A stretch of DNA of 64,000 bases, taken from the NCBI GenBank assembly GCA_964035575.1, contig OZ037838.1, forward strand, positions 1,984,001 through 2,048,000, read 5' to 3'. Shown piece by piece: positions 2,932 to 63,104 of the stretch. The position numbers and the translations under genes were made by a program. How positions within the stretch are numbered: the stretch's first letter is position 1; each line of letters starts with the position of its first letter. A model generated the notes under the pieces. It worked only from the letters and a program-made list of their open reading frames with translations, ran no database searches and was not told the origin of the DNA. Source of the DNA: Rhynchopus sp. YZ270_cl-10 (taxonomy: Eukaryota).

Positions 2932-2935
2932 AACA

Positions 2936-23503: not shown

Positions 23504-23658
23504 CACAGCTCCACAGCTCCACAGCTCCACAGCTCCACAGCTCCACAGCTCCACAGCTCCACAGCTCCACAGCTCCACAGCTCCACAGCTCCACAGCTCC
23601 ACAGCTCCACAGCTCCACAGCTCCACAGCTCCACAGCTCCACAGCTCCACAGCTCCAC

Positions 23659-23661
<3 letters not shown>
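23504..23661. repeat. (CTCCACAG)n microsatellite, about 20 copies, abutting a 48-nt poly-T (23662-23709)
   Basis: A perfect octamer run, directly visible. Confidence 0.95.
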
Positions 23662-23713
<52 letters not shown>

Positions 23714-35700: not shown

Positions 35701-38700
35701 TGAAGGCATGAGTGAGGTTTTTTTGTACACGTTACCGTGAGCGGGCGCGCGAAGCGCGCACGCGAACGCCCCGCGGGAAGCGAATAGCTGACCGCCTGCC
35801 CAGTGTGTGAGGTCCATACAAAAAAAACCACCTGTAAAAAAAGGTGAGGTCCTCCTCATGTTTCCATGGAAGTGTCACACAAGAACGACAGGTTTTTTAG
35901 CCCGTCACCAAATCCTAAAAAACCTTAGTTTTTTAGTCTTTACTATAGAGATGTGCGCCACCCACACCACACACACTACACACCCACACAGAGCACACCC
36001 ACACACACCCACACACACACACACACACACCCCCTCACCACCAGGGGGATTTGACCAAAAAATCGATTTTTTTAAATAAATAGTTGCTCATCCAAAAGTG
36101 AATTTTTTGGGCTTAACGTGTTGTTTGGGGGTATTGAGGCCCAAAAAAAAATTTTTTTTCAGTCGTGTTCAGAAATTGGACTGCCAAATGACATGTGGCA
36201 TTCGGCCAAAAATCAGCTTTTTTGGTCATTTTTACCTTGTAAAACATGACACTTGTGGCATGCTTCCCAGTACAGGAAAGTGCATTGAAAAACCTGAAAA
36301 AACACATGTAATATGTGATGGTCAAAAGTGCAAGATTCCTTCGTTAATGAACTTTTTGAGTACCAGTTATACCTGGGGAATATGGTCAGATCACTCTTTT
36401 GACCGTCTGGCGTTTACCACAAAAACACCACTTTTTACAGGCCACTTTACAGGCCAGTTCGTGAAGGCACGAGTGAGGTTTTTTTGTACACGTTACCGTG
36501 AGCGGGCGCGCGAAGCGCGCACGCGAACGCCCCGCGGGAAGCGAATAGCTGACCGCCTGCCCAGTGTGTGAGGTCCTTACAAAAAAAACCACCTGTAAAA
36601 AAAGGTGAGGTCCTCATCACGTTTCCATGGAAGTGTCACACAAGAACGACAGGTTTTTTAGCCCGTCACCAAATCCTAAAAAACCTTAGTTTTTTAGTCT
36701 TTACTATAGAGATGTGCGCCACCCACACCACACACACTACACACACACACCCACACACACCCACACACACCCACACACACACACACACACCCCCTCACCA
36801 CCAGAGGGGATTTGACCAAAAAATCGATTTTTTTAAATAAATAGTTGCTCATCCAAAAGTGAATTTTTTGGGCTTAACGTGTTGTTTGGGGGTATTGAGG
36901 CCCAAAAAAAAATTTTTTTTCAGTCGTGTTCAGAAATTGGACTGCCAAATGACATGTGGCATTCGGCCAAAAATCAGCTTTTTTGGTCATTTTTGCCTTG
37001 TAAAACATGACACTTGTGGCATGCTTCCCAGTACAGGAAAGTGCATTGAAAAACCTGAAAAAACACATCTAATATGTGATGGTCAAAAGTGCAAGATTCC
37101 TTCGTTAATGAACTTTTTGAGTACCAGTTATACCTGGGGAATATGCTCAGATCACTCTTTTGACCATCTGGCGTTTACCACAAAAACACCACTTTTTACA
37201 GGCCACTTTACAGGCCAGTTCATGAAGGCACGAGTGAGGTTTTTTTGTACACGTTACCGTGAGCGGGCGCGCGAAGCGCGCACGCGAACGCCCCGCGGGA
37301 AGCGAATAGCTGACCGCCTGCCCAGTGTGTGAGGTCCTTACAAAAAAAACCACCTGTAAAAAAAGGTGAGGTCCTCATCACGTTTCCATGGAAGTGTCAC
37401 ACAAGAACGACAGGTTTTTTAGCCCGTCACCAAATCCTAAAAAACCTTAGTTTTTTAGTCTTTACTATAGAGATGTGCGCCACCCACACCACACACACTA
37501 CACACCCACACACAGCACACCCACACACACCCACACGCACACACACACACACCCCCTCACCACCAGAGGGGATTTGACCAAAAAATCGATTTTTTTAAAT
37601 AAATAGTTGCTCATCCAAAAGTGAATTTTTTGGGCTTAACGTGTTGTTTGGGGGTATTGAGGCCCAAAAAAAAATTTTTTTTCAGTCGTGTTCAGAAATT
37701 GGACTGCCAAATGACATGTGGCATTCGGCCAAAAATCCTAAAAAACCTTAGTTTTTTAGTCTTTACTATAGAGATGTGCGCCACCCACACCACACACACT
37801 ACACACCCACACACAGCACACCCACACACACCCACACACACACACACACACACCCCCTCACCACCAGAGGGGATTTGACCAAAAAATCGATTTTTTTATA
37901 TAAATAGTTGCTCATCAGAAAGTGAATTTTTTGGGCTTAACGTGTTGTTTGGGGGTATTGAGGCCCAAAAAAAAATTTTTTTTCAGTCGTGTTCAGAAAA
38001 TGGACTGCCAAATGACATGTGGCATTCGGCCAAAAATCAGCTTTTTTGGTCATTTTTACCTTGTAAAACATGACACTTGTGGCATGCTTCCCAGCACAGG
38101 AAAGTGCATTGAAAAACCTGAAAAAACACATCTAATATGTGATGGTCAAAAGTGCAAGATTCCTTCGTTAATGAACTTTTTGAGTACCAGTTATACCTGG
38201 GGAATATGGTCAGATCACTCTTTTGACCATCTGGCGTTTACGACAAAAACACCACTTTTTAACAGGCCACTTTACAGGCACAAGTGAAGTTTTTTTGTAC
38301 ACGTTACCGTGAGCGGGCGCGCGAAGCGCGCACGCGAACGCCCTGCGGGAAGAGAATAGCGGACCACCTGCCCAGTGCGTGAGGTGCAGGGCTTCCCACA
38401 GGGGGGACCAGGGGGGACCACTGGTCCCCCTGGGGGAAAATAAAAATAATAAGGGGGGACCAGGGGGGACCAGCCTGCCCTTGAGTGTTCCGAGGCTGCC
38501 TATTAGGAATTTTCCACATTTTTTTTAATTTTTCCCACCCTCCCGTCCCCGCGCATCCAAATACAGGCAACTACACGACGGTGATGTACAGTACATTACA
38601 AGTGAAGTTACATGTAACGTTACAAGTGAGTTACAAGTGAGTTACAAGTGGGATACATGAATTACAGGCAAAATCCTAAAAAACCTTAGTTTTTTAGTCT

Positions 38701-41700: not shown

Positions 41701-43453
41701 TTTTTACAGGCCACTTTACAGGCACGAGTGAGGTTTTTTTGTACACGTTACCGTGAGCGGGCACGCGAAGCGCGCACGCGAACGCCCCGCGGGAAGCGAA
41801 TAGCTGACCGCCTGCCCAGTGTGTGAGGTGCTTACAAAAAAAACCACCTGTAAAAAAAGGGAGGTCCTCATCACGTTTCCATGGAAGTGTCACACAGAAC
41901 GACAGGTTTTTTAGCCCGTCACCAAATCGATTTTTTTAAATAAATAGTTGCTCATCAGAAAGTGAATTTTTTGGGCTTAACGTGTTGTTTGGGGGTATTG
42001 AGGCCCAAAAAAAAATTTTTTTTCAGTCGTGTTCAGAAAATGGACTGCCAAATGACATGTGGCATTCGGCCAAAAATCAGCTTTTTTGGTCATTTTTACC
42101 TTGTAAAACATGACACTTGTGGCATGCTTCCCAGCACAGGAAAGTGCATTGAAAAACCTGAAAAAACACATCTAATATGTGATGGTCAAAAGTGCAAGAT
42201 TCCTTCGTTAATGAACTTTTTGAGTACCAGTTATACCTGGGGAATATGGTCAGATCACTCTTTTGACCATCTGGCGTTTACGACAAAAACACCACTTTTT
42301 AACAGGCCACTTTACAGGCACAAGTGAAGTTTTTTTGTACACGTTACCGTGAGCGGGCGCGCGAAGCGCGCACGCGAACGCCCTGCGGGAAGAGAATAGC
42401 GGACCACCTGCCCAGTGCGTGAGGTGCAGGGCTTCCCACAGGGGGGACCAGGGGGGACCACTGGTCCCCCTGGGGGAAAATAAAAATAATAAGGGGGGAC
42501 CAGGGGGGACCAGCCTGCCCTTGAGTGTTCCGAGGCTGCCTATTAGGAATTTTCCACATTTTTTTTAATTTTTCCCACCCTCCCGTCCCCGCGCATCCAA
42601 ATACAGGCAACTACACGACGGTGATGTACAGTACATTACAAGTGAAGTTACATGTAACGTTACAAGTGAGTTACAAGTGAGTTACAAGTGGGATACATGA
42701 ATTACAGGCAAAATCCTAAAAAACCTTAGTTTTTTAGTCTTTACAAAAGAGATGTGCGCCACCCACACCACACACACTACACACCCACACACACACACAC
42801 ACACCCCCTCACCACCAGGGGGATTTGACCAAAAAATCGATTTTTTTAAATAAATAGTTGCTCATCCAAAAGTGAATTTTTTGGGCTTAACGTGTTGTTT
42901 GGGGGTATTGAGGCCCAAAAAAAAATTTTTTTTCAGTCGTGTTCAGAAATTGGACTGCCAAATGACATGTGGCATTCGGCCAAAAATCAGCTTTTTTGGT
43001 CATTTTTACCTTGTAAAACATGACACTTGTGGCATGCTTCCCAGCACAGGAAAGTGCATTGAAAAACCTGAAAAAACACATGTAATATGTGATGGTCAAA
43101 AGTGCAAGATTCCTTCGTTAATGAACTTTTTGAGTACCAGTTATACCTGGGGAATATGGTCAGATCACTCTTTTGACCATCTGGCGTTTACCACAAAAAC
43201 ACCACTTTTTAACAGGCCACTTTTCACCTGAAAAGCCAGTTCATGAAGGCACAAGTGAAGTTTTTTTGTACACGTTACCGTGAGCGGGCGCGCGAAGCGC
43301 GCACGCGAACGCCCCGTGGGAAGCGAATAGCGGACCACCTGCCCAGTGCGTGAGGTGCTTACAAAAAAAACCACCTGTAAAAAAAGAGAGGTCCTCATCA
43401 CGTTTCCATGGAGGTGTCACACAAGAACGACAGGTTTTTTAGCCCGTCACCAA
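23748..43453. mobile_element. Array of a ~761-bp non-autonomous Helentron/DINE-1(HINE)-like element; tandem and self-nested copies
   Basis: Ends are fixed (ATCCTAAAAAACCTTAG... and ...AGGTTTTTTAGCCCGTCACCAA). There is an 11-bp asymmetric subterminal inverted repeat CTAAAAAACCT/AGGTTTTTTAG, terminal hairpins and an internal CA-rich microsatellite. Insertion is at AA|AT (TT on the other strand) without duplication. Head-to-tail 761-bp units start at 35151, 35912, 36673 and 37434. Confidence 0.75.
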
Positions 43454-43687: not shown

Positions 43688-43906
43688 CCGTATGAGGCAG
43701 GTCTGAGCCCCATCCTGGAACCCAACCACCTCATCCTGGGCAACAACAAGCCCGCTGACATTCTGCTGTCCACAGGGGTCGGGGAGTCGAGAGGACGAGC
43801 TATCGATGTGACTGTGTGGACGCCGACGTCAGCGTCGATGGTGCAGGGTGCCGCAGTCGCGAAGGGGTACGCGGCGACGAAGGCGGAAACTGCCAAGAGG
43901 AAGAAG
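43688..43906 (+). pseudogene. Fragment encoding the N-terminal half of a restriction-like endonuclease (RLE) of a CRE-like retrotransposon
   Basis: Translates PYEAGLSPILEPNHLILGNNKPADILL...AIDVTVWTP...YAATKAETAKRKK, homologous to GAGLGPVIEQ...RPADIYL...LDVTHVAP...KTQGQRKREK in the long ORF; ends at the gap. Confidence 0.85.
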
Positions 43907-44106
43907 NNNNNNNNNNNNNNNNNNNNNNNNNNNNNNNNNNNNNNNNNNNNNNNNNNNNNNNNNNNNNNNNNNNNNNNNNNNNNNNNNNNNNNNNNNNNNN
44001 NNNNNNNNNNNNNNNNNNNNNNNNNNNNNNNNNNNNNNNNNNNNNNNNNNNNNNNNNNNNNNNNNNNNNNNNNNNNNNNNNNNNNNNNNNNNNNNNNNNN
44101 NNNNNN
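43907..44106. other. Assembly gap (200 N)
   Basis: Run of N. Confidence 0.99.
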
Positions 44107-44143: not shown

Positions 44144-45992
44144 TTCAATGCACTTTCCTGTACTGGGAAGCATGCCACAAGTGTCATGTTTTACAAGGTA
44201 AAAATGACCAAAAAAGCTGATTTTTGGCCGAATGCCACATGTCATTTGGCAGTCCAATTTCTGAACACGACTGAAAAAAAATTTTTTTTTGGGCCTCAAT
44301 ACCCCCAAACAACACGTTAAGCCCAAAAAATTCACTTTTGGATGAGCAACTATGTATTTAAAAAAATCGATTTTTTGGTCAAATCCCCCTGGTGGTGAGG
44401 GGGTGTGTGTGTGTGTGTGTGGGTGTGTGTGGGTGTGCTGTGTGTGGGTGTGTAGTGTGTGTGGTGTGGGTGGCGCACATCTCTATAGTAAAGACTAAAA
44501 AACTAAGGTTTTTTAGGATTTGGTGACGGGCTAAAAAACCTGTCGTTCTTGTGTGACACTTCCATGGAAACGTGATGAGGACCACACTTTTTTTACAGGT
44601 GGTTTTTTTTTGTATGCACCTCACGCACTGGGCAGGTGGTCCGCTATTCGCTTCCCACGGGGCGCTCGCGTGCGCGCTTCGCGCGCCCGCTCGCGGTAAC
44701 GTGTACAAAAAAACTCTATGGTCACTTTTTTGCACTATTGTGTGCTGGGAAGCATGCCACAAGTGTCATGTTTTACAAGGTAAAAATGACCGAAAAAGCT
44801 GATTTTTGGCCGAATGCCACATGTCATTTGGCAGTCCATTTTTTGAACAGGACTGTCTTAAATTTTTTTTTTGGGCCTCAATACCCCCAAACAACACGTT
44901 AAGCCCAAAAAATTCACTTTTGGATGAGCAACTATTTATTTAAAAAAATCGATTTTTTGGTCAAATCCCCTCTGGATGGTGAGGGGGTGTGTGGGTGGGT
45001 GTGTGGGTGGGTGGTGTGGGTGTGGGTTTGCGGGTGTGTGGTGTGGGTGGCGCACATCTCTATAGTAAAGACTAAAAAACTAAGGTTTTTTAGGATTTTT
45101 GGCCGAATGCCACATGTCATTTGGCAGTCCAATTTCTGAACACGACTGAAAAAAAATTTTTTTTTGGGCCTCAATACCCCCAAACAACACGTTAAGCCCA
45201 AAAAATTCACTTTTGGATGAGCAACTATTTATTTGGTGACGGGCTAAAAAACCTGTCGTTCTTGTGTGACACTTCCATGGAAACATGAGGAGGACCTCAC
45301 CTTTTTTTACAGGTGGTTTTTTTTGTATGGACCTCACACACTGGGCAGGCGGTCAGCTATTCGCTTCCCGCGGGGCGTTCGCGTGCGCGCTTCGCGCGCC
45401 CACTCACGGTAACGTGTACAAAAAAACCTCACTCATGCCTTCATGAACTGCTTTAAAAGTGGCCTGTAAAAAGTGGTGTTTTTGTGGTAAACTCCAGCTG
45501 GTCTGAAGAGTGATCTGACCATATTCCCCAGGTATAACTGGTACTCAAAAAGTTCATTAACGAAGGAATCTTGCACTTTTGACCATCACATATTACATGT
45601 GTTTTTTCAGGTTTTTCAATACACTTTTGTGTACTGGGAAGCATGCCACAAGTGTCATGTTTTACAAGGTAAAAATGACCAAAAAAGCTGCTTTTTGGCC
45701 GAATGCCACATGTCATTTGGCAGTCCATTTTTTGAACAGGACTGTCTTAAATTTTTTTTTTGGGCCTCAATGCCCCCAAACAACACGTTAAGCCCAAAAA
45801 ATTCACTTTTGGATGAGCAACTATTTATTTAAAAAAATCGATTTTTTGGTCAAATCCCCCTGGTGGTGAGGGGGTGTGTGTGTGTGTGTGTGTGGGTGTG
45901 TGTGGGTGTGCTGTGTGTGGGTGTGTAGTGTGTGTGGTGTGGGTGGCGCACATCTCTATAGTAAAGACTAAAAAACTAAGGTTTTTTAGGAT
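44141..45992. mobile_element. Nested copies of the same HINE-like element, in opposite orientation to the main array
   Basis: Reverse-complement ends TTGGTGACGGGCTAAAAAACCT and CTAAGGTTTTTTAGGAT; the same internal modules. Confidence 0.8.
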
Positions 45993-46012
45993 TCCTAGTA
46001 CAGAGCTGTGGA

Positions 46013-46156
46013 GGGGACCACTTTTTTACAGGGGACCACTTTTTTACAGGGGACCACTTTTTTACAGGGGACCACTTTTTTACAGGGGACCACTTTTTTA
46101 CAGGGGACCACTTTTTTACAGGGGACCACTTTTTTACAGGGGACCACTTTTTTACA
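46013..46156 (+). repeat. 18-bp tandem repeat (GGGGACCACTTTTTTACA) x8 at the retrotransposon 5' end
   Basis: Copies start at 46013, 46031, 46049, 46067, 46085, 46103, 46121 and 46139. Confidence 0.95.
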
Positions 46157-46301
46157 CATTACAACACACTTGTCCTTTCTTTTTAACCCCTCCCTTCCTT
46201 TCCCTCCCCTTTCCTTTGTTTTTATTTTTGTGAGCCTTGTACGCCTCCTCGGGGCGGTCCCTGGGCAACGGTTGAGGGTGCAGGCCGGCGAAGCGCAAGG
46301 C
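46139..46301 (+). ncRNA. HDV-like self-cleaving ribozyme in the retrotransposon 5' UTR (shortest form given; P1 can come from any of the 8 repeats)
   Basis: P1 GGGGACC / GGTCCCT (46256-62, G-U at position 1); P2 GCCTTGTAC (46234-42) / GCGCAAGGC (46293-301); P3 GCC/GGC; L3 TCCTCGG; P1.1 CC/GG (46263-64); GCAA linker; P4 CGGTTG/CAGGCCG; J4/2 GCGAA with the C75 equivalent at 46289. Order and core sequence follow the genomic HDV ribozyme. Confidence 0.85.
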
Positions 46302-46354
46302 GTAGTGTGTCTTGCCCTTATTTCCTTTTGTTTTTTGTTTTCCTTTTGGTGAAG

Positions 46355-49300
46355 ATGTGCAGGTGGAGAGCCCAGGTATGGGCTGTGGCGCTCCTGTGTG
46401 GAGCCATAGATGATGGTGGCGCATTGCCCAACTGGACCTGCAGCAGCACAAGAAGTCATCGAGCAGCACCTGACGATAGCAGCAACTCCAGCGGCGGCAG
46501 CAAAGGCGGCGGCAGCACCACCTTCAGAGGTATCGGCTACTACTACTACAGCTGCAGTAGTGGCAGCTTCAGCTCGAGCACGGGCACTGAAAGCAGCGGC
46601 AAGCAGAGCTGGGGAAGTAACCCCAGTGGGGTCAGCGGCAACGGGACCTACTACAGCAGCGCCAAAAGCAGTGGCTATTTTTTGCGGGATAGTGGCGGGG
46701 ATGTGGGACGCTCTGATAGCAGTGGTAGAGGTGGCAGCAGCAGCAGCAGCAGAAACAGCAACCACAGTAACAGCAGCAACAGTAGCACAAGCATCAGTAG
46801 CAGCAACAGCTACTACAACAGCAGCTGCTACAGTTTCGGCTACAGCAACTGCTACAATTACTACTGCAGCAAGAGCGAGAGCACCTGCAACTGCAACTGC
46901 AACGACTACGGCATGAACAACAACAGCAACTGCTACAGCAACAGCCATCACTGCTGCAAGAGCACCAGCAACAGCACCAACAACTGCACCTGCAACAACC
47001 GCAAGAGCTACAACTACAGCAGTTACAGCAACTGCAGCAGCCAAGGCTGGAGTGAGAGAGTGGGTGCAGGCGGTGCCGGGCATGGTGGAGGCTCAGTCAG
47101 GAGTGGGTATGGAGTTTTAGACGGCGACGATGATGGCCCCCGCCCCCCCGGCAGCAGCAGCTCCTTCAGCCACAAGAACCTCAGCAACAGTCTCCTCAGC
47201 GGTGGCAGCGGGAGCCCCCTTCCCCCCCATTATTACCCCATAAAGAGGCCTTTTGAGCCCAACAACCCAAGCAGCTACAGCTTTGATAGCAGTAACAAAA
47301 ATTTTTGTGGAGGCAACACAGCAAAAAACTGTTGTCATTATAGACCACACCCCCCTCCCCCCCATGATAACCCCAAAAAGAGGCACGGTATGCCCAACCA
47401 TTTCAGTGGCTGCAACTGTGATAGCAGCAAAAACGTACTCCTCGGAGTCCTGGGTAGGGTCCCGGTATCACCCCTGGCGTGCAGCAGCGGTAGCAGCACC
47501 ACCTACAGCATCAGCAACTGCAGCAGCAATAGCACAAGTGTATCTATAGGCGCCTACAGCAACACCAGCTCCTGCAGCGACGCCAACAGCAACAGCAATG
47601 ACTACAGCAGCTGCAGCATCAACATCATGGGTGACGGTGTGAGAGGTATGCTGGTGTTCGGGGACAGCCTTGAGGGGCTTGAGGGTCAGAGTTGCTGTGT
47701 GACGATGCGGGTGTGGCGGACCTTTCTCACCCCCACTTTCCAAAAGGGGAACGTAAAGTTAGAGCTATGGTTCGACTGGTGGTGCAACCTCTGGGAGGTC
47801 TTCACCTCCTTGCGCCAACCAGACCCCTGCTGGGTAGCCGAGGCACCTGAGTGGGGAGTGTTTGTGTCTTTCGCGGTCCTGGATCTGTGGAAGGACAGAC
47901 GCGCCCCCACCCTCAGTCTCCTCCTTTTGTGGCTGGTGGGTAGGAGGAGGCCCAGGAGGTTGTGCAGGGGTCCCCGGTCTTTGAACTGGGCCAAAGCACA
48001 GGCGGGTAAGCTCCGTCGGCGCAAGCTCCGTCGGCGCAAGGCGCCCTGCAATCGTCCGCCCTCTCCGTTCGCACCCGCAGGTTCCCGCAGTTTCAGGGGT
48101 GCTGACGCTGTGAGAGGGGCAGTGCAGTGTGCGGCCATCTGGGTACTGGTGGTTGTGGGCTCTGAGCTTGGGAGGTCAGCGCCACATGCTTTGGGTTGTG
48201 TGCTGTTTCGGGACGCGGAGTTGCTGGGGGTGGGGCTGCTGCGGGGACTGTGCAGATTACGCAGGGGAGGGCGGTGGCTGGAAGGGGTGAGCGAGCGAGT
48301 GCGCCGATGGACCGGAGGGATCCGAGTGGCTGCCAGCTTGGTGAGGGCCAGTGTGCTGAGGGTGAGTCAGTTTTCGGTGAGTGCGGCCGGGTGGGTTTGG
48401 GTTGCATGGTCCGCAGGCGGTTTTTTGGCGGGTGTTGTGGCACTGGTCGGTGTCGCGCGCCCACTTGGCTGGGTTCTTCTCTTGGAGGTGTACCGTGTGG
48501 CAACACTCATGTGGACTCGTAGGATCGGGATGGCTTTTGGCATGCTGGCCTTATCCCTACTGGTCTTGCTGTCACTGTTGTGGCGAGCGGTGACGCCCTG
48601 GGACCTGCTCCCTGCCCCTGCTGATCCGAAGCACCCGATAGGCTTGTCCCCGTACGCTTTGTCGGGCGGCTGTGCGAATAGGGAGTCGCCTGCGTACCAT
48701 GCCGACGCCGTGGTAGTGGACAGAGTCCTGACCAGATACGGAGCCCAGCGGAACGTCACCTCCTCCACCAACGACTGCGGATACCTGGCGTTGCATTACT
48801 GGGATAGCGTAGCTCAGCCGGACGTTAAGGCCCTGCGCAAGGTGGTTGTGGATGCCGCTACGTCGGTGCCCGATAGGATGGTTCAGGTTTTGGGAAGTGG
48901 ACTGGCCGTCACGGAGTTTGTAAACGGTGTTTCAGGCACTGCTCACCTAAATCACATGGGGCTCCAGCTCTTCGCCACTTCGCAGCAGAAGAACATCGTG
49001 GTGGTGCAGGCTAGTGAGGACGACCCGCTGGTGCTCATCTCCCCGGGGTGCCGTTTCCTGACGGCCGCGGCCATTGCTAAGTTCCAAGACACGTTGGATA
49101 CAGTGGTCATCAGCCTCTGCGGCTCGCATTTCGAATACGTGTCCGTAGGGGCGGACAACGCGAATTCGAAGGAGTCCGTCGCATGGAAGATGCGTAAGGC
49201 TGCGCGAGACGCCGTTTTGGACCCGGCCCAGAAGATCGGCCCCATCCCCACCACCACCAGGACGACGGCGCCCCTATCAACTAAGTTGGGGAACATCAAC

Positions 49301-52300
49301 GCCGAGCGAGTGTTCTGCCCCTTCGACAAGTGCCGCCAGGGAATCCTGTCATCCTTCAAGGGTGAGGGGCTGTGCAGGAAGAGCATCCTGGACCACATGC
49401 GCCGGCACCAAGCAGAGGACTCTTATGTGTCGGACGACCTCCTCGGACACCTCGGGATGGCCCGCTGCGCCAATGATCAATGCGACAAAATCATCCCAGG
49501 TTCTAGAGAGTGGTGCAACCTATGTGAGGTGGCTTTTGGCGAGGCGGGTTTCACGGCCCCGGACCGACGTGATCGGGGCGGACTCACGGCCGAAGATGAC
49601 CTCCCTACTTTCGAGGCTATTGGCACCACGCGTGTGCAACTCAAAGGGGGCTGTCCGGAGGCTTACCTTGAGCAGTATTCGCGACTTTTCCTGAAGGTTT
49701 TGCTGGACATACTGTCACACCAAGACGAGCTCGCGTGGAAAAAATTTGCTTTGTTTTTCACGGTCCTCCACAGAGTGCGGTCGGATCGAGGGGGGGAGGG
49801 GCAGGCCAAGCGTCATTCTCGCGGTTGGGCGAAGGATTTGCAGCTCTGGGAAGAAGGGAAATTCGTCACTTTGTGGAACGACACCGTTGAGGGCCGCAAA
49901 CCTCCTGCTGCGTGGACTGACGGCGATACCGTAGAGGGGAAGAAGAAGCGAGCGGTGGCGAAGGCAAGGGCGGGTCTGCCAAGCCAGGCCATGACGAGCG
50001 CCACCAGCGCGGGTGTTGCCCCCCACACGAAGGTGACTTTGGAGAAGCTGGAGGCCAAGCACCCCTCACCCGACGCCGATCCGGGGGTTTTCGATTGGCC
50101 GGATACAGTTGACGTTCCGCCTGTGACGCCGCTTGAGTTGATGAAGGCCATGCGCAGCATGCCGCGATCGTCCGCAGCTGGCCCCTCCCACGTCACGGGA
50201 GCTCACCTCCGTACCCTCTGTTTGCAGCGTCGGGCTGGGTCTAAGGGCGCTCTAGGGGCCTTGGCGGCTGTACTCTCCTCGCTGGCCAAAGGGGAGGCCC
50301 CGCCTGAGGTGTCCCATTTCCTGGCAGGGGCGAACCTGGTTGCTTTACGGAAGTTGGCAAAGACTCCCGATCAGGAGGAGGATGTGCGGCCCATTGCCGT
50401 TGGAGACACGCTCAGACGGCTGGTGGGCAAGATCCTGGCGACTCGGGTGCGTACTCAGTCCCGTTCCATCTTCCTCAGGGGGAACCAAGTGGGAGTGGCA
50501 ATGCCCAGGGGTACTTCAGCGGCGGCGGATGTCATTGCGCAGTACGCAGAGCGCCACAAGGAGGATGACAAGGTAATCCTCAAAATAGATTACCGCAATG
50601 CCTTTAACAGCATTGATCGGACCGAGATGCTTCGCGCCGTGGATGCACACCTCCCCGAGCTGGCTCCCTGGGTGAGGTGGTGTTACATGTCTCCATCTTG
50701 CCTTTTCTTCGGCGAGGCCATCGTGAGGTCACAGAGGGGGGCTCAGCAAGGGGACCCCCTCGGTCCTCTGCTGTTTGCCCTCACCATACACCAAATGACG
50801 TTGGAGCTCCGTAGTGTGCCGGACTTGGATGGTACGTTGTGGTACCTGGACGACGGCTCCTTGCGTGGCCCCCCAGAGGCGGTGTACAAGGCATACCAGA
50901 TTCTGCTAGAACGCAGTGTCCGCCTGGGTCTGGAGGTGAACGAGAGTAAGTGTGAGCTCGTTGCGATGGGGGGTCTGACGGCGCAACAACTTGGACAGGT
51001 CGGCTTTGTGATCCGGGACGATAAGCAGCAGGGAGGGGAGGGTTTCAAGCTGCTAAGCCACACGGGTTTCGAATTTTTGGGTCTGCCGATTGGAACCAGT
51101 GCGTATTGTGAGGAGTACATGCTGGTAAAGATGGAGACAACGCGGTCTAACCTCAGGGCCCTCATCGAACTGGATGACGCGCAGGTGGCGTACTACATCC
51201 TGCGTTACTGCGAAGGCTTCTGCCGCATGGTTTTTTACATGCGTGGGGTGACGGTGGTGGCCACAAAGTACCTGGGGATTTTCGACGAGGAGATCGGCAA
51301 GTGCCTCGCTGCCCTCCTGCACGACGCTCACGGTAGCCTTCCGCAGCTCGCCAGGGACCAGGCTGCCCTCCCCATTGCAATGGGAGGTCTAGGGATACGC
51401 AGAACCCGGGATCACTGGTCGGCAGCAGCTCTTGCGTCCCAAGCTGGGAACTTCCAGTTGGCGCAAACCCTCGACCCACAGTACGCCTGGGATGCTCTGA
51501 GATGGAAGCATGCTGTTTCAGACTACAACGAGAGGGTGGACCTGAAGTACAAACTCAACACAGACCAGCCCACCCAGCTCCCTGTCCAGCAGAAGCTCTC
51601 GGCGGCTATTGTTGATGCGCAGGCAGACAAGCTCATGCTGGCCTTGAGCACGAGGGACCGTGCCCGCATGAAGTCCCTTCTCCTCCCCATGTCCGGGGCG
51701 TACCTCACAGCGATCCCCTCCAACGCCAACATGTTGGAGAGCACCACCTTTGCGGCGGTGACGCGTTTCCGGCTAGGAGTGGCCATCCATGTGCCGGACT
51801 CCGTCTGCTCTTGTTGCTCTGGTGCGGGGACGCAACTTAAGATGGACGCGTATGGGGACCACTCCTTCGCCTGTTCCCACAGGGGATGCAGAATCCGCCG
51901 GCATGATGCCCTGAAACTTGCTCTGGGGGAGGCCGCGACAGGTGCTGGTCTAGGCCCGGTGATCGAGCAGCGTACAGGGGAACCAGGTGAGGGTGGCCAG
52001 CGACCAGCTGACATTTACCTGCCAGGAGGCGTATCTGAGAGCGCGCCGCGGTGTTTGGATGTGACCCATGTCGCCCCGACCCTGCCCTCCTACCGCCGGC
52101 CCGCTGCGAAGTTTATTGGGTGGACGGCGAAGACTCAAGGTCAGAGGAAGAGGGAGAAGCACGAGTTGTACTGCCGGCACAGGATGTCCTTTTCGCCGGT
52201 GGTGTTTGAGGCCTTTGGCGGAGCTGGGGACGAGGCGAATTTGCTGTTAGCTCAGCTGGGTGGTCTGGCAAAAGATGTGTCTTCCCGTCTGGTGGGGTCG

Positions 52301-55264
52301 GCTGAGACGCGTATCCGCGAGCGGGTAGCTATTCGCTATCAGAAAGAAGTCGGTGCCTCTTTCCTGCGTAGGGGGGCTTTGTGCTTGGGGATTTCGACCA
52401 TTGGTTCCCACAAGGAAAGCGGAACCCCGGAAGAGACGGACCCCTTGGACATGGACCGGTACGCTCGCAGCAGCAGCGACGCAGTGGAGCCCCTCCTCGT
52501 GGACCCCAACGCGCCAGATGACGACATGGCGAAGGTGGACGAACCCGGGACGCGGAAGCGCAAGCGTGATGACCCCCAGCCCTACGCGGAGGAGATGTCT
52601 CACGATTGGGAGGGCACCAGGCACAGAGCGGAGTATGCACTGGATTCCCCTGGGGAGCAGGCGGAAGATGTGTGCGACGCGTGGGAGCAGCTCAGGGAAC
52701 AGGCACCTTCGGATTTGCCGTCCGCACTGTCGCAAGCGGCTACCCTGGGTGCGGCCCCAGTTCCGTGGGAGTTTGTTGAAGGGGATTGTGCTTTCCAGGC
52801 CCTGCTCCACGCAGCGAACGTGGACATGCCGGTTTTGGAGTTGCGCAAAGCCACAGTGGCCAAGGTCCAGGGCCGGCCTTTCCTTGCACGCAAGACCCAG
52901 CCGGATTTCCGCCGTTGGGCACGTCTGATGACGAGCGGGGACAGGGGGGACCAGCGGACTTGGGCGGACACGATTGCAGTGGCCGGGGCGGGTGAAGCGC
53001 TCGGGGTGGTGGTCGTCATCCTTAGCGACCATTACAGACCTTCGCTCTGGGTCCCCTATACTGGAAAGCCCACCAAAGTTGTACTCCTGCTGCATTCAGG
53101 GACAAAAACCTTGGACGACGGAACCGAGATCCCTGCGCACTACGCTCCCCTGCGACCGAACCCGCAGTGGGAGTTTTACATCCTCTCGAGCACTTCCTCA
53201 GGTATTGTCCACATGAAGGTTTGCGAGTCAGTGAGCGAAATGCAGTTCTGTGGGGCACAGGGGGAGGCGAATTTTGGTGTGGAATGCGTGCAATGTCAAT
53301 CGATATTCTTTCGATGTGACGCGCATTTCAGGTGTACTGCGTGTGGTACGGAGGTTTGTCTGCGGTGTGCCGAGGGTTCCAAGTTCTGCCATCTGTCGAA
53401 GGCAGGCGGGGTGGAGTTCCGCACCAGGGCGCCACCTGCCGCACAGCACGCTGCCGGTCCCAGGGGAGGGGCAGAGATGGAAGACGGGGAGACTCGCCCC
53501 CCGACCCCAACGACAGACCCGGCGGACACCCCCATGACGGACGACACTCCGGCGCCGGGTTTTGTGCGCCCAAAGGAGGAGACTCTGGAGGAAGAAGCCC
53601 CCGCCCGAGAAGAGAGTTTCGAGGAGGCGTCCCTCAGACAGCAGCTGGAGCAGGCACGCCGGGAGGCAGAGGCGTCCGCGGAGGCATTGCGGGAGGCGCG
53701 GCGGGGGGAGGAGGAACTTCGCGCCCAGTGTGAAGAAGAATGCTCTCGCTGGCGGCAGAAGTGCTGGGAAGCGGGCGAGGGAGATAAGGCGGCGAGGGAC
53801 GAGGCGAGAGAGCAGCTGTGGCAGTACGAGCAGCAGCTGCGACAGCAGTCTGAGGACGCGGCGCAGGTGGAGCAACAGCAGAGGGAGAAGGCTGCACGGA
53901 TGCAACAGCAGCAGCAACAAGCCGAGGTTTTGCGAGCTCAGTTGGAGCTACAGCAGCAACAGCTACATCAACAGCAGCAGGAGGAGGCTGCGCGGATGCA
54001 ACAGCAACACCGACAGGCGGAGGAGTTGAGAGCCCAGTTGGAACTGCAGAAGCAGCAGCTGCAGCAACAGCAACAACAACAACAACAACACCAGCCGCCC
54101 CCACTACAGCAGCTGCCACAGCAACAGCCCCCGCCGCAACAGCCGCAGCAGCAGCAACAACACCACCAACACCTACCGCCGCAACAGCCGCTGCAGAAAG
54201 AATCACACCAGCCGCAACAGCCGCAGCAGCAGCAACATCAGCAGCAGCAGCAACACCACCAACACCAACAGCCACTGCAGAAAGACCAACACCAGCCACG
54301 CCAGCCGCAGCAGCAACAGCAACACCAGCCGCAAGGGCCGCAGCAGCCGCAGCAGCAACAACACCAACCACTCCCTCCGCAACATCTGCAACACCCGGTA
54401 GATGGGGCTCAACCCCCCTGGCAGAAGAAGCAGGCGGGGTCTCCCCCCAAAGTGAAAATGGAGGCCGCTCCGACTGAATCCCCTCCCAAGGTGAAGATCG
54501 AGCCCCCGGAAGATCACAAGTCCCCCGAAACACCACCGCCTGTGCCTTTCAACGTGAAGCGTATGACGGACGAGAAGGCTCGGGAGACGGTCAGGGACAT
54601 CCTGAAGGAGGCGAACGAGGTTTGGAAATGGAAAAAGACGGACATCCACGTGCGGGAGGGCCTCTACCCTTGCCTCTCCATGGGTAACCCTGTCCCTTCC
54701 GGTGTGACCCAGTGGATCGACATGTTCCACTACAGACAGGGTAGGGGTAAAAGCTGTCTCCCTACTAGTCAGATGACCCTGATAGCTTTCAAGGAGTGGC
54801 TAGCGGTAATGCGGGCCGCCGGGGTGGCTGCGAAGTGGTCCAAGGAGGAGGTGTCCACGGCCGCAAAAACCCGGAACTCGCTGGTCTCGAACAAAGCCGC
54901 CCGCAAGGATTGGGACAAAGCCGTGCAAGAGCGACAGGCGCGAGAAGAAGCGTCGCGGCAGGGTCGAGATCCTCAAGCCCAGCCATCCCACCTTTCCTCC
55001 TCCTCCCCCAGCACAGGCAGTGGCAGCTACACCTCCAACGCCCAACCTGTGCCCTCCTCGTCCGTCAAGAAGGTAGAGCGCCCCGCTGGAGCTAGGACTG
55101 GAGACCGGTCATCCCAGGTGGTCGCAGGGGCCAGTGCCATTTTCCTGGAGAAAACGGCCTCGGCTCCGGTGCATGCGCGGCAGGCGCGAGTGGTACACCA
55201 GGAGGTGAACGTGCGCGCCCCCGGCCGCGGGGGAGGCGGCGGCAGGGGGACAAAGCGACGCTGA
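46355..55264 (+). CDS. Retrotransposon polyprotein: low-complexity N-terminus, OTU-like 1, C2H2/Cys zinc fingers, reverse transcriptase, CCHC, RLE, OTU-like 2, Cys-rich finger, coiled-coil/Q-rich region
   Basis: RT motifs: VRPIAVGDTLRRL, KIDYRNAFNSIDR, GAQQGDPLGPLLF, WYLDD (about 50839), GLEVNESKCE, LPIAMGGLG. CCHC: CSCC...DHSFAC...RRHD. RLE: RPADI...LDVT...K..KH...FSPVVFEAFGG. OTU-like: NDCGY...HFEYV (about 48770-49140) and GDCAF...WAD...HYAPL (about 52780-53150). The first in-frame ATG is 46355; the true start is uncertain. Confidence 0.9.
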   Translation: MCRWRAQVWAVALLCGAIDDGGALPNWTCSSTRSHRAAPDDSSNSSGGSKGGGSTTFRGIGYYYYSCSSGSFSSSTGTESSGKQSWGSNPSGVSGNGTYYSSAKSSGYFLRDSGGDVGRSDSSGRGGSSSSSRNSNHSNSSNSSTSISSSNSYYNSSCYSFGYSNCYNYYCSKSESTCNCNCNDYGMNNNSNCYSNSHHCCKSTSNSTNNCTCNNRKSYNYSSYSNCSSQGWSERVGAGGAGHGGGSVRSGYGVLDGDDDGPRPPGSSSSFSHKNLSNSLLSGGSGSPLPPHYYPIKRPFEPNNPSSYSFDSSNKNFCGGNTAKNCCHYRPHPPPPHDNPKKRHGMPNHFSGCNCDSSKNVLLGVLGRVPVSPLACSSGSSTTYSISNCSSNSTSVSIGAYSNTSSCSDANSNSNDYSSCSINIMGDGVRGMLVFGDSLEGLEGQSCCVTMRVWRTFLTPTFQKGNVKLELWFDWWCNLWEVFTSLRQPDPCWVAEAPEWGVFVSFAVLDLWKDRRAPTLSLLLLWLVGRRRPRRLCRGPRSLNWAKAQAGKLRRRKLRRRKAPCNRPPSPFAPAGSRSFRGADAVRGAVQCAAIWVLVVVGSELGRSAPHALGCVLFRDAELLGVGLLRGLCRLRRGGRWLEGVSERVRRWTGGIRVAASLVRASVLRVSQFSVSAAGWVWVAWSAGGFLAGVVALVGVARPLGWVLLLEVYRVATLMWTRRIGMAFGMLALSLLVLLSLLWRAVTPWDLLPAPADPKHPIGLSPYALSGGCANRESPAYHADAVVVDRVLTRYGAQRNVTSSTNDCGYLALHYWDSVAQPDVKALRKVVVDAATSVPDRMVQVLGSGLAVTEFVNGVSGTAHLNHMGLQLFATSQQKNIVVVQASEDDPLVLISPGCRFLTAAAIAKFQDTLDTVVISLCGSHFEYVSVGADNANSKESVAWKMRKAARDAVLDPAQKIGPIPTTTRTTAPLSTKLGNINAERVFCPFDKCRQGILSSFKGEGLCRKSILDHMRRHQAEDSYVSDDLLGHLGMARCANDQCDKIIPGSREWCNLCEVAFGEAGFTAPDRRDRGGLTAEDDLPTFEAIGTTRVQLKGGCPEAYLEQYSRLFLKVLLDILSHQDELAWKKFALFFTVLHRVRSDRGGEGQAKRHSRGWAKDLQLWEEGKFVTLWNDTVEGRKPPAAWTDGDTVEGKKKRAVAKARAGLPSQAMTSATSAGVAPHTKVTLEKLEAKHPSPDADPGVFDWPDTVDVPPVTPLELMKAMRSMPRSSAAGPSHVTGAHLRTLCLQRRAGSKGALGALAAVLSSLAKGEAPPEVSHFLAGANLVALRKLAKTPDQEEDVRPIAVGDTLRRLVGKILATRVRTQSRSIFLRGNQVGVAMPRGTSAAADVIAQYAERHKEDDKVILKIDYRNAFNSIDRTEMLRAVDAHLPELAPWVRWCYMSPSCLFFGEAIVRSQRGAQQGDPLGPLLFALTIHQMTLELRSVPDLDGTLWYLDDGSLRGPPEAVYKAYQILLERSVRLGLEVNESKCELVAMGGLTAQQLGQVGFVIRDDKQQGGEGFKLLSHTGFEFLGLPIGTSAYCEEYMLVKMETTRSNLRALIELDDAQVAYYILRYCEGFCRMVFYMRGVTVVATKYLGIFDEEIGKCLAALLHDAHGSLPQLARDQAALPIAMGGLGIRRTRDHWSAAALASQAGNFQLAQTLDPQYAWDALRWKHAVSDYNERVDLKYKLNTDQPTQLPVQQKLSAAIVDAQADKLMLALSTRDRARMKSLLLPMSGAYLTAIPSNANMLESTTFAAVTRFRLGVAIHVPDSVCSCCSGAGTQLKMDAYGDHSFACSHRGCRIRRHDALKLALGEAATGAGLGPVIEQRTGEPGEGGQRPADIYLPGGVSESAPRCLDVTHVAPTLPSYRRPAAKFIGWTAKTQGQRKREKHELYCRHRMSFSPVVFEAFGGAGDEANLLLAQLGGLAKDVSSRLVGSAETRIRERVAIRYQKEVGASFLRRGALCLGISTIGSHKESGTPEETDPLDMDRYARSSSDAVEPLLVDPNAPDDDMAKVDEPGTRKRKRDDPQPYAEEMSHDWEGTRHRAEYALDSPGEQAEDVCDAWEQLREQAPSDLPSALSQAATLGAAPVPWEFVEGDCAFQALLHAANVDMPVLELRKATVAKVQGRPFLARKTQPDFRRWARLMTSGDRGDQRTWADTIAVAGAGEALGVVVVILSDHYRPSLWVPYTGKPTKVVLLLHSGTKTLDDGTEIPAHYAPLRPNPQWEFYILSSTSSGIVHMKVCESVSEMQFCGAQGEANFGVECVQCQSIFFRCDAHFRCTACGTEVCLRCAEGSKFCHLSKAGGVEFRTRAPPAAQHAAGPRGGAEMEDGETRPPTPTTDPADTPMTDDTPAPGFVRPKEETLEEEAPAREESFEEASLRQQLEQARREAEASAEALREARRGEEELRAQCEEECSRWRQKCWEAGEGDKAARDEAREQLWQYEQQLRQQSEDAAQVEQQQREKAARMQQQQQQAEVLRAQLELQQQQLHQQQQEEAARMQQQHRQAEELRAQLELQKQQLQQQQQQQQQHQPPPLQQLPQQQPPPQQPQQQQQHHQHLPPQQPLQKESHQPQQPQQQQHQQQQQHHQHQQPLQKDQHQPRQPQQQQQHQPQGPQQPQQQQHQPLPPQHLQHPVDGAQPPWQKKQAGSPPKVKMEAAPTESPPKVKIEPPEDHKSPETPPPVPFNVKRMTDEKARETVRDILKEANEVWKWKKTDIHVREGLYPCLSMGNPVPSGVTQWIDMFHYRQGRGKSCLPTSQMTLIAFKEWLAVMRAAGVAAKWSKEEVSTAAKTRNSLVSNKAARKDWDKAVQERQAREEASRQGRDPQAQPSHLSSSSPSTGSGSYTSNAQPVPSSSVKKVERPAGARTGDRSSQVVAGASAIFLEKTASAPVHARQARVVHQEVNVRAPGRGGGGGRGTKRR

Positions 55265-55476: not shown

Positions 55477-55508
<32 letters not shown>

Positions 55509-58156
55509 CCCTAGGCTCGACTTTTTTTTGTTCCACATCAAACTGGACAGGGCAAGGGGGGTACGTTTATAATGCACATGAAAGGCGCTTGGTCCGAGCG
55601 AAGCGAGGGCCAAAAGTCTTACAATCAGTACATGTGCCGGTTTAGTTAGAACGAGGCACAAAAGTGAATTAAACGAGGGAGATATTTGTCATCAGCATGT
55701 CGCCCTATTATGTATCGTTGTTTGCCGAGCGAAGCGAGGCATACAACTATATTTAGCTCTATGACAATTTGGGATAAAGGAGGGGTGAACATTAACACGG
55801 GAGAGGCAGGGGTGAATATAGACTGTCCAGTCTGTGTGGTTTTGCTGTATTTCCAGTATTGGTGCCCAGCTGGTTCTGGAGGGGAGGAAGGGGCGGGATG
55901 GGGCTTTCTTTTTACAATACGAAGTTCCTTTCTTGTTACTTTTGTTTTGTCTCTTGTAGTCTTTTTTGTTTGGATGATTAACGCCAGTAGCGACCCCCCA
56001 TGGAACTCGTAGGGGATGGGGTGGGGGAAAAAATCTCCGTCGCTTACTCCTAGGCCGACGCCCACAGACAAACCGCCTCCTTGGCTTACTCCTGACGTTT
56101 TCTGTGAGGGGGAAGATTTGGAATTTACATACAAGGGGCTTGACACCAGGGGGATTACACACATGTATCTAATGGGAGGGGTTGGGGGTAAAAAGGAAAC
56201 AGGGAACTAAACAGGTGTTGCTACACACAAAAGTTGGGGTGGGGGAAAATAACAGAGAAGGGAAGGGCAACAGTGCCCACATAAACCACAATCACAACCA
56301 ATCGCGAGGCCCTTCTATTTGAAGGTCGCCTCCATCATCAGCACCAGGACCGCCCTAAGCGCCCCGTACTGACTCGTCTGCCGTCCTCCGACGCGCCCCA
56401 GCTCCTCCCGCTGATCCCACCACGCGTCCAGCGCCTCGTACGCCACCTCCGGTGCCAAGGGAGTCATTCCCTCTCGCCTGGTCCCTCCCCTGGGGAAGAA
56501 GCAGTCCGCCCACTCTTCGACATTTCTCGGCACCCTGTCCCCTTCCTTCTGGCTGTGTGGGACTAACCCTTTCGCCTCCACATCCGACCCTCGCGAGATA
56601 GGGGGAGAAGGCCGCCTTGCTGTGGTCTCCGCAGACCTGTCCTCCACTACACCGGAGCGACGAGTGTGGTTCCCCTGCGCCCGCCGCGAAGTCCCAAGGG
56701 TGGTCAGCTTCGTCCTTCTTTCCGCGTGGGACTTAGCCGTCCATCCACCAGTCTTCGCTGAACCCAAGTGGTGGTCACCAGTCAGAGCTGTTGGTGTGGT
56801 GTTGTAGCTCTGCTCTGATGGCCCCCAGACGAAGGATTCTGCTGCGGTTGCGGTGTTGTTGTCCATGGTGGTGTCGTGGTCGGCGCAGTCGGCGGAATCC
56901 TCCTCATCCATAACCTCCTCCTTCACCTCCGTTGCCGCGTCCTGTGGGGGAGCTGGGTTGCTGTTGTAGTAGCTACCTCCCACTGTCTGCGGTGTTGTCG
57001 GCTGAACTGGCTGAACTGGCTGAACTGGCTTTGCCCTCAGCACACACTTTGCGTTGGCGCTCCCACATCCCTCACACCATGTGCGCTCGCAGGAACTACA
57101 AAACCAGTGGGGGACACTACATTCGGTGATGAGTGCGCAGTTTTCGCACGTGAGCAATTCCCCCTGTCTCCCCGGGCGCTCCTCCATCCGTGACAGCGCT
57201 CCGGTGCTGTGGCACTGCATCTCTGGAAGGGGGGTGTCGGGGGCAAGGCTTCGCAGATATGCAAACGTGTTGTCTGTCATGCATAACGGCGAGAAGTGGC
57301 CAGCCTCGTGAGCTCCTGTGTGCAGCACTGCTACGGCCCCGTTCGACTTGCTGGCTGGTCTATGGATGTGCACCTTAGAGTCCGATGACACGACCGCCAC
57401 AATGACTACCTGCAAAGCCCGTGCCAGACCCGCCAGTGCTGTCTGGTCCGCCCACGACCTGCGATCCCTGTTCCCTGCCAGGCTCATCCATCGCACCCAG
57501 GTCGCGAGGTCGGGCATCGCATTTCTCGCCAGGTCAGCATCTCTCTTCACTCTCTCCACCGCCAGGGACCGAAGGGTCGACGATGTCACCACCTTCCAGC
57601 TCCGCACTGACCAGCACACTGCGTCGAACGCACAGTCTCCTACTCGGAACGGCACGGGCACCTGCGGTCGGGACAGCCCCCACTTCACCAAGTTGGCCTC
57701 CAGTTCGCTGTGGGGGGTTGGGTCCTGTGCTGCTGTCTCTGGCGCCGTTTCCTTCTCGTTGCCTGTCTCTGGCTCCTCCTCCGCACTCACCCTGATGTCT
57801 CCCTGGTGGTCGTCTGTCACTTCCAGGTTAGGTAGATGGTCGGGGGGCAAGCGTATCAAGTCCCCCTCTTCCGGGTCGACGGTGGGATCTAAGTCCACAC
57901 GCTCTCGCAGAGGACCCCTCAGGCAACCAGTCAGAGACCCTCGATCCGTCGCGGCCTTCCCGATCTGTCGCTGCAGCGTCGTCCCTAGCCCCCAATTCCA
58001 CCTCTGTGACATCTCCACTCTGTTCCCAAGCTTCCTGTCCGCTGCGAAACGGAGCATCTGCTGCCATATCGACGCCGCCGCGGGTCCCAGACCTCCTGTG
58101 GTCTCCAGGGCGAAGGGTGTGAACGCCAGCCGCTCCGCCGCACACGCGTCACCATG
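55477..58156 (-). mobile_element. 3' part of a second, diverged CRE-like retrotransposon with ~0.8-kb 3' UTR and 30-nt poly(A)
   Basis: An ORF remnant ending at 56315, a UTR, and poly-T at 55477-55506 on the + strand. Confidence 0.8.
56315..58156 (-). pseudogene. C-terminal ORF of element 2: RLE end, OTU-like domain, Cys-rich finger, C-terminal domain
   Basis: HGDAC...FTPFALETTGG (RLE end); GDCAFDAV...SWADQTALAGLARALQVVIV...HFSPL (OTU-like); CENC...C..HWFCSSCERTWCEGC. Collinear with the C-terminal third of the long ORF. Confidence 0.85.
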
Positions 58157-62300: not shown

Positions 62301-62490
62301 GATTTTTTGTAGGCAAAAATTGCTGGGAAAAATTTTTTGGTCAAAATCCTGGTTTTTGGGGTCTCATACATGTGTATGACCAAATTTTAGGTGGTCAAAA
62401 GTGGAGTCTGACCCCCATGTCCAGGTTATGGAAATGTCATATGAAGCCATTGCTGAAGGAATTTTGCACTTTTGCGCATCAACAATTATG
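59390..62490. repeat. 349-bp satellite, about 9 copies, with a 698-bp A/B dimer periodicity
   Basis: AAAATCATGTAAAAACTGATACATGC recurs every ~349 bp; identical ORFs at 59898, 60596 and 61294 (offset 698). Confidence 0.9.
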
Positions 62491-63104
62491 TACTGGGCAT
62501 TTTTCCCACACAAATTTGACCCAGTACTCAAGGACAATTTGACCTTGGTTCTTCTCTCAGGGTCTTCTGACCAATTTTTAACATGTCTAAAATGGTATCT
62601 GACCCCCATGTCCAGGTCATAAAAACGCCCAATCAGTCCATTAAAGCCACAGATTTGATGTTTTGAGTAGTTGTGGTTAAATGTGGCCCAATTTTCCCAG
62701 CCAAAAAATGACCCCAAAAATCACGAAAAAAAATATTTTAAAGCCGATACACTTACACACCTAAATTTGGCCCAATATGTCCAATGTGGTCCTCCAGGGT
62801 TGCAATGGCCTCATTTTATGGGCATACTGGCCATATTTCATACTTATGTCACATTTTGAAATTTTCGTCACATACAATACACACACCTTAGAACCACAAA
62901 ATATCGTCAATTCCTTCACAAAAATAGCCGTGAAATGCCGCACCCATTTTAGGTATCTTCAGAAAATGCTAACATCCAAACCCAGTACATTACGTCGTTT
63001 TTGGGCCCCAATCTACCGGAGTGTATTATCAGAAATACTGGGACCACGCGATCCAGCAATCCTGCAGCGTCGCCATTTTGTACCCCTCAAACCCGTAATA
63101 ACTA

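Follow-up and report, generated by a model that had tools for sequence, protein, structure and literature searches.

The stretch of DNA analysed here (64,000 nucleotides; the window) carries on its plus strand a long uninterrupted ORF that we assign to a CRE/SLACS-like non-LTR retrotransposon, preceded by the parts of an HDV-type ribozyme fold and, further upstream, by a tandem array of 18-nt units. The features were as follows:

45994..46012, plus strand: 19 nt separating the satellite from the array, probably target or filler DNA and not part of the element; zero depth over 45994-46005 in public sequencing runs X2 and X4
46013..46156, plus strand: array of eight 18-nt units (repeat detection and pairing check)
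46146..46233, plus strand: J1/2 linker in its shortest form, 88 nt, pyrimidine-rich and predicted to be unstructured; up to 214 nt when counted from the outermost unit
46234..46242, plus strand: 5' strand of P2 (pairing check)
46243..46255, plus strand: P3, L3 (TCCTCGG) and P3, with CC 46247-48 as the L3 side of P1.1 (Rfam alignment and pairing check)
46256..46264, plus strand: 3' strand of P1 (P1'), GGTCCCT, and the GG of P1.1 (pairing check)
46269..46287, plus strand: P4 (~4 bp) and its loop L4 (46273-46283)
46288..46292, plus strand: J4/2 with the predicted catalytic C46289 (Rfam alignment and pairing check)
46293..46301, plus strand: 3' strand of P2 (pairing check)
46307..55264, plus strand: uninterrupted ORF of 2985 codons, CRE/SLACS-like non-LTR retrotransposon, first ATG at 46355
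46340..46357, plus strand: possible spliced-leader acceptor for the ORF mRNA (pyrimidine tract, AG at 46353-54, ATG at 46355)
48770..49135, plus strand: OTU-like protease motifs, identified by eye (aa ~822-943)
50375..51088, plus strand: reverse transcriptase (RT) domain RVT_1 (aa 1357-1594, E 9.7e-19)
51806..52060, plus strand: CCHC knuckle and restriction-like endonuclease (RLE) motifs RHD, E, RPAD and D (aa 1834-1918; motif comparison with PMC12857005)
52781-53143, plus strand: second set of OTU-like motifs, identified by eye (aa ~2159-2279)

An intact ORF with RT and RLE lies directly downstream of the core, in agreement with an earlier note on this DNA, which had placed the core at the 5' end of a CRE/SLACS-like element. 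A single ORF in which RT is followed by a CCHC knuckle and RLE motif is expected of CRE-clade elements, and this arrangement was found here. The motif reads C-x2-C-x14-H-x3-C-x8-RHD-x19-E-x11-RPAD-x15-D; three of its spacers fall outside the SLACS/CRE ranges given in PMC12857005 (14 vs 7-8, 8 vs 9-10, 15 vs 12-14), and RPAD stands in place of R/KPD. Among 7995 candidates, 63 were scored as homologs, the best informative name being a Diplonema papillatum protein annotated as SLACS. A 3379-aa member of that protein's cluster matched at 30% over 1251 aa (E 6.8e-127), and L1 chains (E 1.7e-7) and R2 chains (E 0.01) scored far below it. On this best named match and the RLE motif, rather than on an RT tree, the element is probably CRE/SLACS-like.

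About 1000 aa extend beyond the RLE. Pfam gave no OTU match in either OTU-like stretch, and four sub-regions of the ORF were likewise negative for OTU and RLE families; a Pfam OTU domain was found in the homolog P0006 (E 3e-4). A second tract-AG occurs at 46233-34, just before P2. The first 250 codons form a low-complexity region rich in Ser, Asn and Cys (46410-47050), and another plus frame holds an Ala/Thr-rich ORF (46410-46916). Elsewhere in the window, the regions 2756-10551, 20822-23408, 13310-18003 and 59390-62495 contain a large receptor-like gene in three tandem copies, two of them frameshifted, and one 361-bp and one 349-bp tandem array. By eye, the receptor-like genes resemble euglenozoan receptor adenylate cyclases.

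Element boundaries and flanking repeats

The earlier note had both array and element begin at G46013. The array does begin there, and the 5' boundary of the element is likely to coincide with it. No target-site duplication that would fix this boundary was seen at the window copy because its 3' side runs through T30 into a second CRE-like fragment in opposite orientation and then into an assembly gap. Upstream, the satellite match stops at 45993 and is followed by 19 other bases before the array; positions 46003-46013 match in phase the (GAGCTGTG)n microsatellite of 23504-23662. None of the contigs of runs X2 and X4 covered 45994-46005, a gap that by itself proves nothing.

At 23504-23709, (CACAGCTC)20 is directly followed by T48, and the same 8-mer phase borders the element's 5' end on the other strand; in protein P0057, from another contig, the 8-mer lies between poly(A) runs. 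The 8-mer microsatellite is a possible retroelement target. From 23745 to 45993 extends a 22-kb modular satellite, whose block order changes at short ATTT overlaps and whose strand switches at the gap 43907-44106. One of its blocks contains a look-alike of the array unit (19 copies), and another is a 10-nt tandem with perfect GGGGACC (38403-38471, 42443-42511). The satellite module was also considered as a decayed core and rejected (similarity p=0.47 and 0.18). Two further CRE-like fragments, at 55477-58156 (minus strand) and 43690-43906 (plus strand), are each cut by an assembly gap bordering (AAACCCGC)n; the minus-strand fragment and the main element are arranged tail to tail, and the second OTU-like region is common to both. 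The D. papillatum protein P0006 terminates in a translation of the 8-mer repeat found beside the window gaps; this and the SLACS-annotated match point to a diplonemid, probably marine, as the likely host. A spliced-leader stem motif had no exact match in the window, and its two 1-mismatch matches were near chance expectation.

The HDV-like core and its reiterated P1 strand

By sequence and pairing check, all parts of a nested HDV-type double pseudoknot except the 5' strand of P1 lie within 46234-46301, and the core proposed there by the earlier note was complete in helices and core bases. P1 (46139-45/46256-62) has 7 bp with G.U at the predicted cleavage position and is available eight times. 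P2 (46234-42/46293-301) has eight of nine positions paired, including one G.U, with one A.C mismatch, and P3 (46243-45/46253-55) has 3 bp, GCC/GGC, closed by L3 (TCCTCGG). P1.1 joins CC 46247-48 to GG 46263-64, with GCAA next, and P4 (46269-72/46284-87) is short, with ~4 bp and an 11-nt loop. J4/2 is GCGAA and includes C46289, which by analogy presumably has the role of C75 in HDV. The conserved bases of L3 and J4/2 were present in the alignments to both RF02682 and RF00094.

The array comprises 8.1 copies of 18 nt at 100% identity, with the unit GGGGACCACTTTTTTACA (six T). The first 7 nt of every unit are GGGGACC, a perfect 5' strand for P1, and the repeat phase begins at the predicted cut G, with cuts predicted 5' of G46013, 46031, 46049, 46067, 46085, 46103, 46121 and 46139. 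Between 45000 and 46227, full 7/7 partners of GGTCCCT occurred only at the eight unit heads, and the six partners at 6/7 were in the upstream satellite, the nearest at 45870. The claims that P1' is partnered locally only by GGGGACC heads and that the eight strands are equivalent were thus upheld, each head giving 7 bp with G.U at the predicted cut. We regard it as very probable that the HDV-like fold is a real and selected ribozyme, and the array units probably serve as its alternative P1 strands.

A descriptor for the HDV core found one core in the 64-kb window and 0.03 cores per dinucleotide shuffle (n=100), and in 0/100 shuffles did such a core have a fully matching P1 strand within 400 nt, a statistic that is generous because the descriptor was written with knowledge of the 46234-46301 core. 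The Rfam covariance-model check called for by the earlier note is independent of the descriptor but weaker: RF02682 matched with E=0.0074 on 551 nt (E=0.86 window-wide), at a score of 26.5 bits below the gathering score of 44. RF00094 scored 17.2 bits against a gathering score of 50 (E=5.4 on 551 nt). The HDV models ranked first and third by score among the five matches in the 551-nt stretch, and a search at gathering scores returned none. As these models lack a long J1/2, they cannot score the 5' strand of P1. No second HDV core was found in the window by descriptor, fuzzy match or Rfam at E <= 5. The fold z-score of the core was 0.27, which is uninformative for a pseudoknot.

A degenerate core pattern retrieved 95 control loci (2 on viral contigs, 93 on metagenome contigs), among which there were no relatives of the element and no tblastn match of the RT region. 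Within distances of up to 700 nt, 60 control loci had no perfect P1 partner, 35 had one and none had two or more; 20 of the 95 passed a filter on P2 and J4/2, one of these having two looser partners. The energy difference separating the HDV fold from the best nested one was 0.1 kcal/mol for the window core, inside the range of -9.8 to +7.1 of 11 distinct complete control matches. One control locus (L091), ~275 bases from a contig end, has an HDV-like ribozyme with a P1 partner 177 nt upstream. Directly before that partner lies sequence that we take to be 28S rDNA just downstream of the R2 site, and the locus is likely an rDNA-inserted element. Loci L003, L018, L040, L050, L054, L061, L067, L075, L077 and L081, together with relatives, belong to a dispersed repeat family with an HDV-like core and a single P1 partner, which lies 105-152 nt upstream where the repeat meets its varying flanks; P1 differs between members (GGCAGGC, GGGAGGC) with matching P1'.

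Other copies of the 5' end

Part of the element was present in 7 of the 11 public runs listed, none of which is recorded as RNA. Contigs of five different runs were compared, with four runs over 45700-47400 and two (X2 and X4) over 45994-46345; variants are given among those listed at a share of at least 2% in X2 and X4. In the core these were 46273 T>A, 46276 G>T and an A after 46277, so that all three sites fell in the 11-nt L4 of the 68-nt core (p ~0.003); the two main L4 variants were identical in X1, X4 and X6. No helix variant at or above 2% was listed in X2 or X4, and there were no diverged relatives among the 95 pattern loci. Covariation of P1 with P1' was not seen; P1' never varied among the variants listed, and the pairing is therefore conserved rather than covarying. 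The linker carried four listed substitutions and several indels. Protein P0042 is a 99% copy of the endonuclease region that then breaks into two 7-residue repeats, which would point to a sister array whose unit is 21 nt long and has a changed head; the core belonging to that array could supply the missing P1 covariation.

Within the array, the main variant was the loss of unit position 9, giving a 17-nt unit, at 60% and 35% of depth in X4 and 21% and 28% in X2 (positions 46129 and 46147, respectively). Loose ends in X2 and X6 had the spacer altered and GGGGACCA kept. A minor variant with an A after unit position 6 (3.5% in X4, 2% in X2) may break the last P1 pair.

Counting repeats at the 5' junctions of other copies, as the earlier note had proposed, gave apparent junctions with one or two units among the long contigs listed, starting at the first G or 3 nt before it. 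X4 record 10 matched from exactly G46139, with 657 unrelated bases upstream, and so has one unit; X4 record 9 and X2 record 1 matched from 46118, and have two units plus 3 nt (ACA). Protein P0064 is a reverse-frame ORF of another copy, on a 1.56-Mb contig, which ends after one unit, either at a junction or else at a variant spacer. It was the one true copy recovered by off-frame translation searches of the 5' end (among 13 of 30 matches examined; 1/5 candidates), and the plus-frame search recovered none among 873 candidates. From these contigs, unit number appears to vary between copies.

The earlier note had named two observations that would tell against the ribozyme, full-length copies lacking the core and copies starting at positions unrelated to GGGGACC. 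Of the two-deletion models tried, the only one to explain the P0064 peptide removes 4 nt from the 3' strand of P3 and 2 nt from P2; an X4 loose end is consistent with this 4-nt P3 deletion as well, so copies with a broken core exist. At least one copy, in a minority, thus seems to lack an intact 3' strand of P3, which bears on the first of those two observations. A 1176-nt subfamily contig (X4 record 11, X1 record 1) has the core, with 796 upstream bases that show no array match.

Summed contig depth over the core exceeded that over the early ORF ~49x in X1 and ~107x in X4, dropping by ~46330, just after P2, and hinting at a high-copy non-autonomous partner family that bears the ribozyme. Across runs X1, X2 and X4, an excess of about 50-100 times took in the array and the linker as well as the core. 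The unit-to-core depth ratio was roughly 2.1-2.7, to which the look-alike satellite motif may add on the array side; as depth is not copy number, the existence of a short, high-copy family averaging about two units is a lead and not a result. Multi-unit contigs had a depth similar to that of the core in X2 and X4. Depth was high again over 47182-47400, and contigs joining 46517 to 47345 were present in X1 and X5.

Possible array turnover and comparison with known systems

The best explanation of these data, to which we give an even chance, is an HDV-like 5' end with a variable tandem cut strand, in which ribozyme trimming is balanced by regrowth through slippage. Host polycistronic transcription would read into the element, as Euglenozoa biology and the likely host suggest; genes of D. 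papillatum are arranged as for such transcription (PMC10161547). The core would then fold and P1' capture a single GGGGACC; all eight would already have been transcribed by the time P1' appears. Cleavage 5' of the captured G would leave an RNA with a 5'-OH and one to eight units. Target-primed reverse transcription of the cut RNA would produce insertions that start at a unit head, which the three junctions fit. Units could be restored if the end of the cDNA pairs again one unit further in and is recopied, or by DNA slippage, and a copy that loses its first bases would be predicted to keep a usable P1 in the next unit.

Loop energies give model weights over the eight sites from 0.25 at the innermost to 0.06 at the outermost, and a cleavage ladder in 18-nt steps is plausible on this model. 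The linker is predicted to be unstructured (-0.09 kcal/mol). In the pseudoknot-free ensemble P1' pairs locally with G46251-54 (0.83), with unit 1 at 0.07 and every other unit below 0.01. HDV-like ribozymes are slowed by long unstructured linkers (PMC4908430), and the distance from P1 to P1' in R2 ranges from 23 to over 700 nt (PMC3774820). In a toy model with one cut per cycle, eight units fall to a mean of 3.6 after one cycle, and 97% of copies are single-unit after six. Since cleavage can only shorten the array, eight perfect units would need regrowth, for which an inward slip of the cDNA end or DNA slippage is the simplest route, and a balance of trimming and regrowth has in our judgement equal chances of being right or wrong. 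The idea that the array buffers the element against 5' erosion is not supported in the form given by the earlier note, as the ribozyme itself would erode the array in the toy model and a regrowth step is required. The 5' strand of P1 is formed by the first RNA bases, which are easily lost at integration, so spare units would benefit the element; that the array was selected as such a buffer is nevertheless doubtful. Rather unlikely, at present, is a fuller scheme of a self-renewing 5' end, in which the ribozyme trims and the RT regrows the terminal unit in the manner of a telomere so that the seven ribozyme bases most prone to loss always have a spare, the cassette is common to a non-autonomous family some 50- to 100-fold commoner, and the units double as spliced-leader acceptors from which the ribozyme could remove the capped leader again. 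A spliced leader ending in G would rebuild P1.

Among the alternatives, the one that survives best is that the cut made by the core is in practice at the innermost unit, either at once or after successive cuts, and that the additional units are a neutral VNTR produced by DNA slippage with no role. Many 5' VNTRs occur in the CRE-related FoTeR and MoTeR elements (PMC12857005), tandem repeats abound in this genome, loop energy is most favourable for the nearest unit, the toy ratchet ends in one unit and one-unit copies appear to exist. Set against this, the repeat phase coincides with the predicted cut G, spacer variants mostly leave the P1 bases intact, and multi-unit contigs occur at core-like depth in X2 and X4, whereas strict innermost cutting would leave one unit in each new copy. 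We consider this alternative unlikely, and the origin of the unit in the insertion target, as in R2, less likely still. There, the cut would fall in upstream target sequence and each non-annealed integration would add one copy, a mechanism known for R2 (PMC3774820), and the satellite offers a look-alike, GAGGACC...T7-ACAG, 19 times in the window, of which the one at 44574 has 16 matches to the unit with a 3-nt gap (p=0.0005, 2000 shuffles). The satellite motif pairs only 6/7 with P1', however; the window copy is not inserted at a look-alike, one- and two-unit contigs continue into other sequence, and the satellite module does not resemble the core (p=0.47 and 0.18).

It is very improbable that the array consists mainly of repeated spliced-leader acceptors or promoter monomers. 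Its junctions do read pyrimidine tract-ACAG|G, with the acceptor point a single base 3' of where the cut is predicted and with 9/12 pyrimidines before the AG at seven internal junctions, the AG is retained in the spacer variants seen, and nearly all D. papillatum mRNAs carry the leader (PMC10161547), but two downstream tracts have 10/12 pyrimidines, one of them directly before the ATG, the conserved 7-mer is the exact complement of P1', and a diplonemid host is itself only probable. Equally hard to credit is a core that is HDV-like by descent and inactive or very slow here, owing to a long unstructured linker of the kind that slows ribozymes (PMC4908430) and to competing hairpins such as that favoured by P1' in the pseudoknot-free ensemble: broken-P3 copies and an Rfam score below gathering would fit such a relic, but the listed core variants are confined to L4 at summed depths of tens of thousands, the ORF is intact and the energy gap is typical of controls.

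The 5' end described here has its nearest counterparts in other retroelements. L1Tc/ingi Pr77, NARTc and SIDER2 likewise involve HDV-like release of a euglenozoan retroelement from polycistronic RNA, with the ribozyme common to short high-copy partners (PMC4035085, PMC6765202). SIDER2 has two tandem 77-nt ribozyme hallmarks, and TbSIDER2 a hybrid fold (PMC4035085, PMC6765202). These elements differ in belonging to an APE-type clade with a compact 77-nt ribozyme, and in doubling the whole hallmark, not the P1 strand alone (PMC4035085, PMC6765202). With SLACS, CZAR, CRE1/2, MoTeR and FoTeR of the CRE clade, the element here has in common the single ORF, RT with C-terminal RLE, zinc-finger-like motifs and 5' tandem repeats (PMC12278014, PMC12857005). 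Its differences from them are that it lies, as far as seen, in neither a spliced-leader gene nor a telomere, and that its ORF continues for ~1000 aa past the RLE. Mouse L1, with its 5' monomers, and HeT-A/TART, with their sacrificial 5' ends, also have reiterated units at the 5' terminus whose loss is tolerated whenever the element transposes, and there the units are promoter-based; here the repeated unit is instead the predicted ribozyme substrate strand.

The earlier note knew of no described case in a CRE/SLACS-like element or with reiterated P1 strands. The latter have a precedent: Eickbush, Burke and Eickbush (2013) described R2 junctions in which P1 is duplicated; cleavage there is 'presumably at either', and an internal cut removes the duplication (PMC3774820). 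For CRE elements or diplonemids, we found no report of an HDV-like ribozyme in the part of the open-licence literature available, and CRE elements may already have been noted by Ruminski et al. (2011) or in Repbase reports. A review lists R2, L1Tc, baggins and RTE as ribozyme-bearing (PMC6765202), and PMC3636483 ties the ribozyme to R2 and similar elements. In the parts available, PMC12278014 ties it to INGI only and not to CRE, and PMC12857005 does not mention a ribozyme.

Like the element here, R2 is an RLE-type non-LTR element with an HDV-like ribozyme at its 5' end and a long distance between P1 and P1', and its non-autonomous SIDEs keep the ribozyme (PMC3774820). In R2, however, the duplicate is 28S target sequence, found at ~5% to over 90% of junctions depending on species and mostly in two copies, although one junction insert holds a 20-nt unit three times, per a figure legend (PMC3774820). 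In contrast, the unit here appears to be borne by the element, which is CRE-like and outside rDNA, and occurs as eight perfect copies and in 17- and 18-nt forms. If true, our interpretation would extend HDV-like 5' processing to the CRE clade, and the array would be a natural test of the point left as 'presumably' in R2, that of one core choosing among several P1 strands. As the unit count at a junction would record the cut site of the parent RNA, junctions would read out both site choice and the repair of 5' ends during retrotransposition, the least understood step of non-LTR integration.
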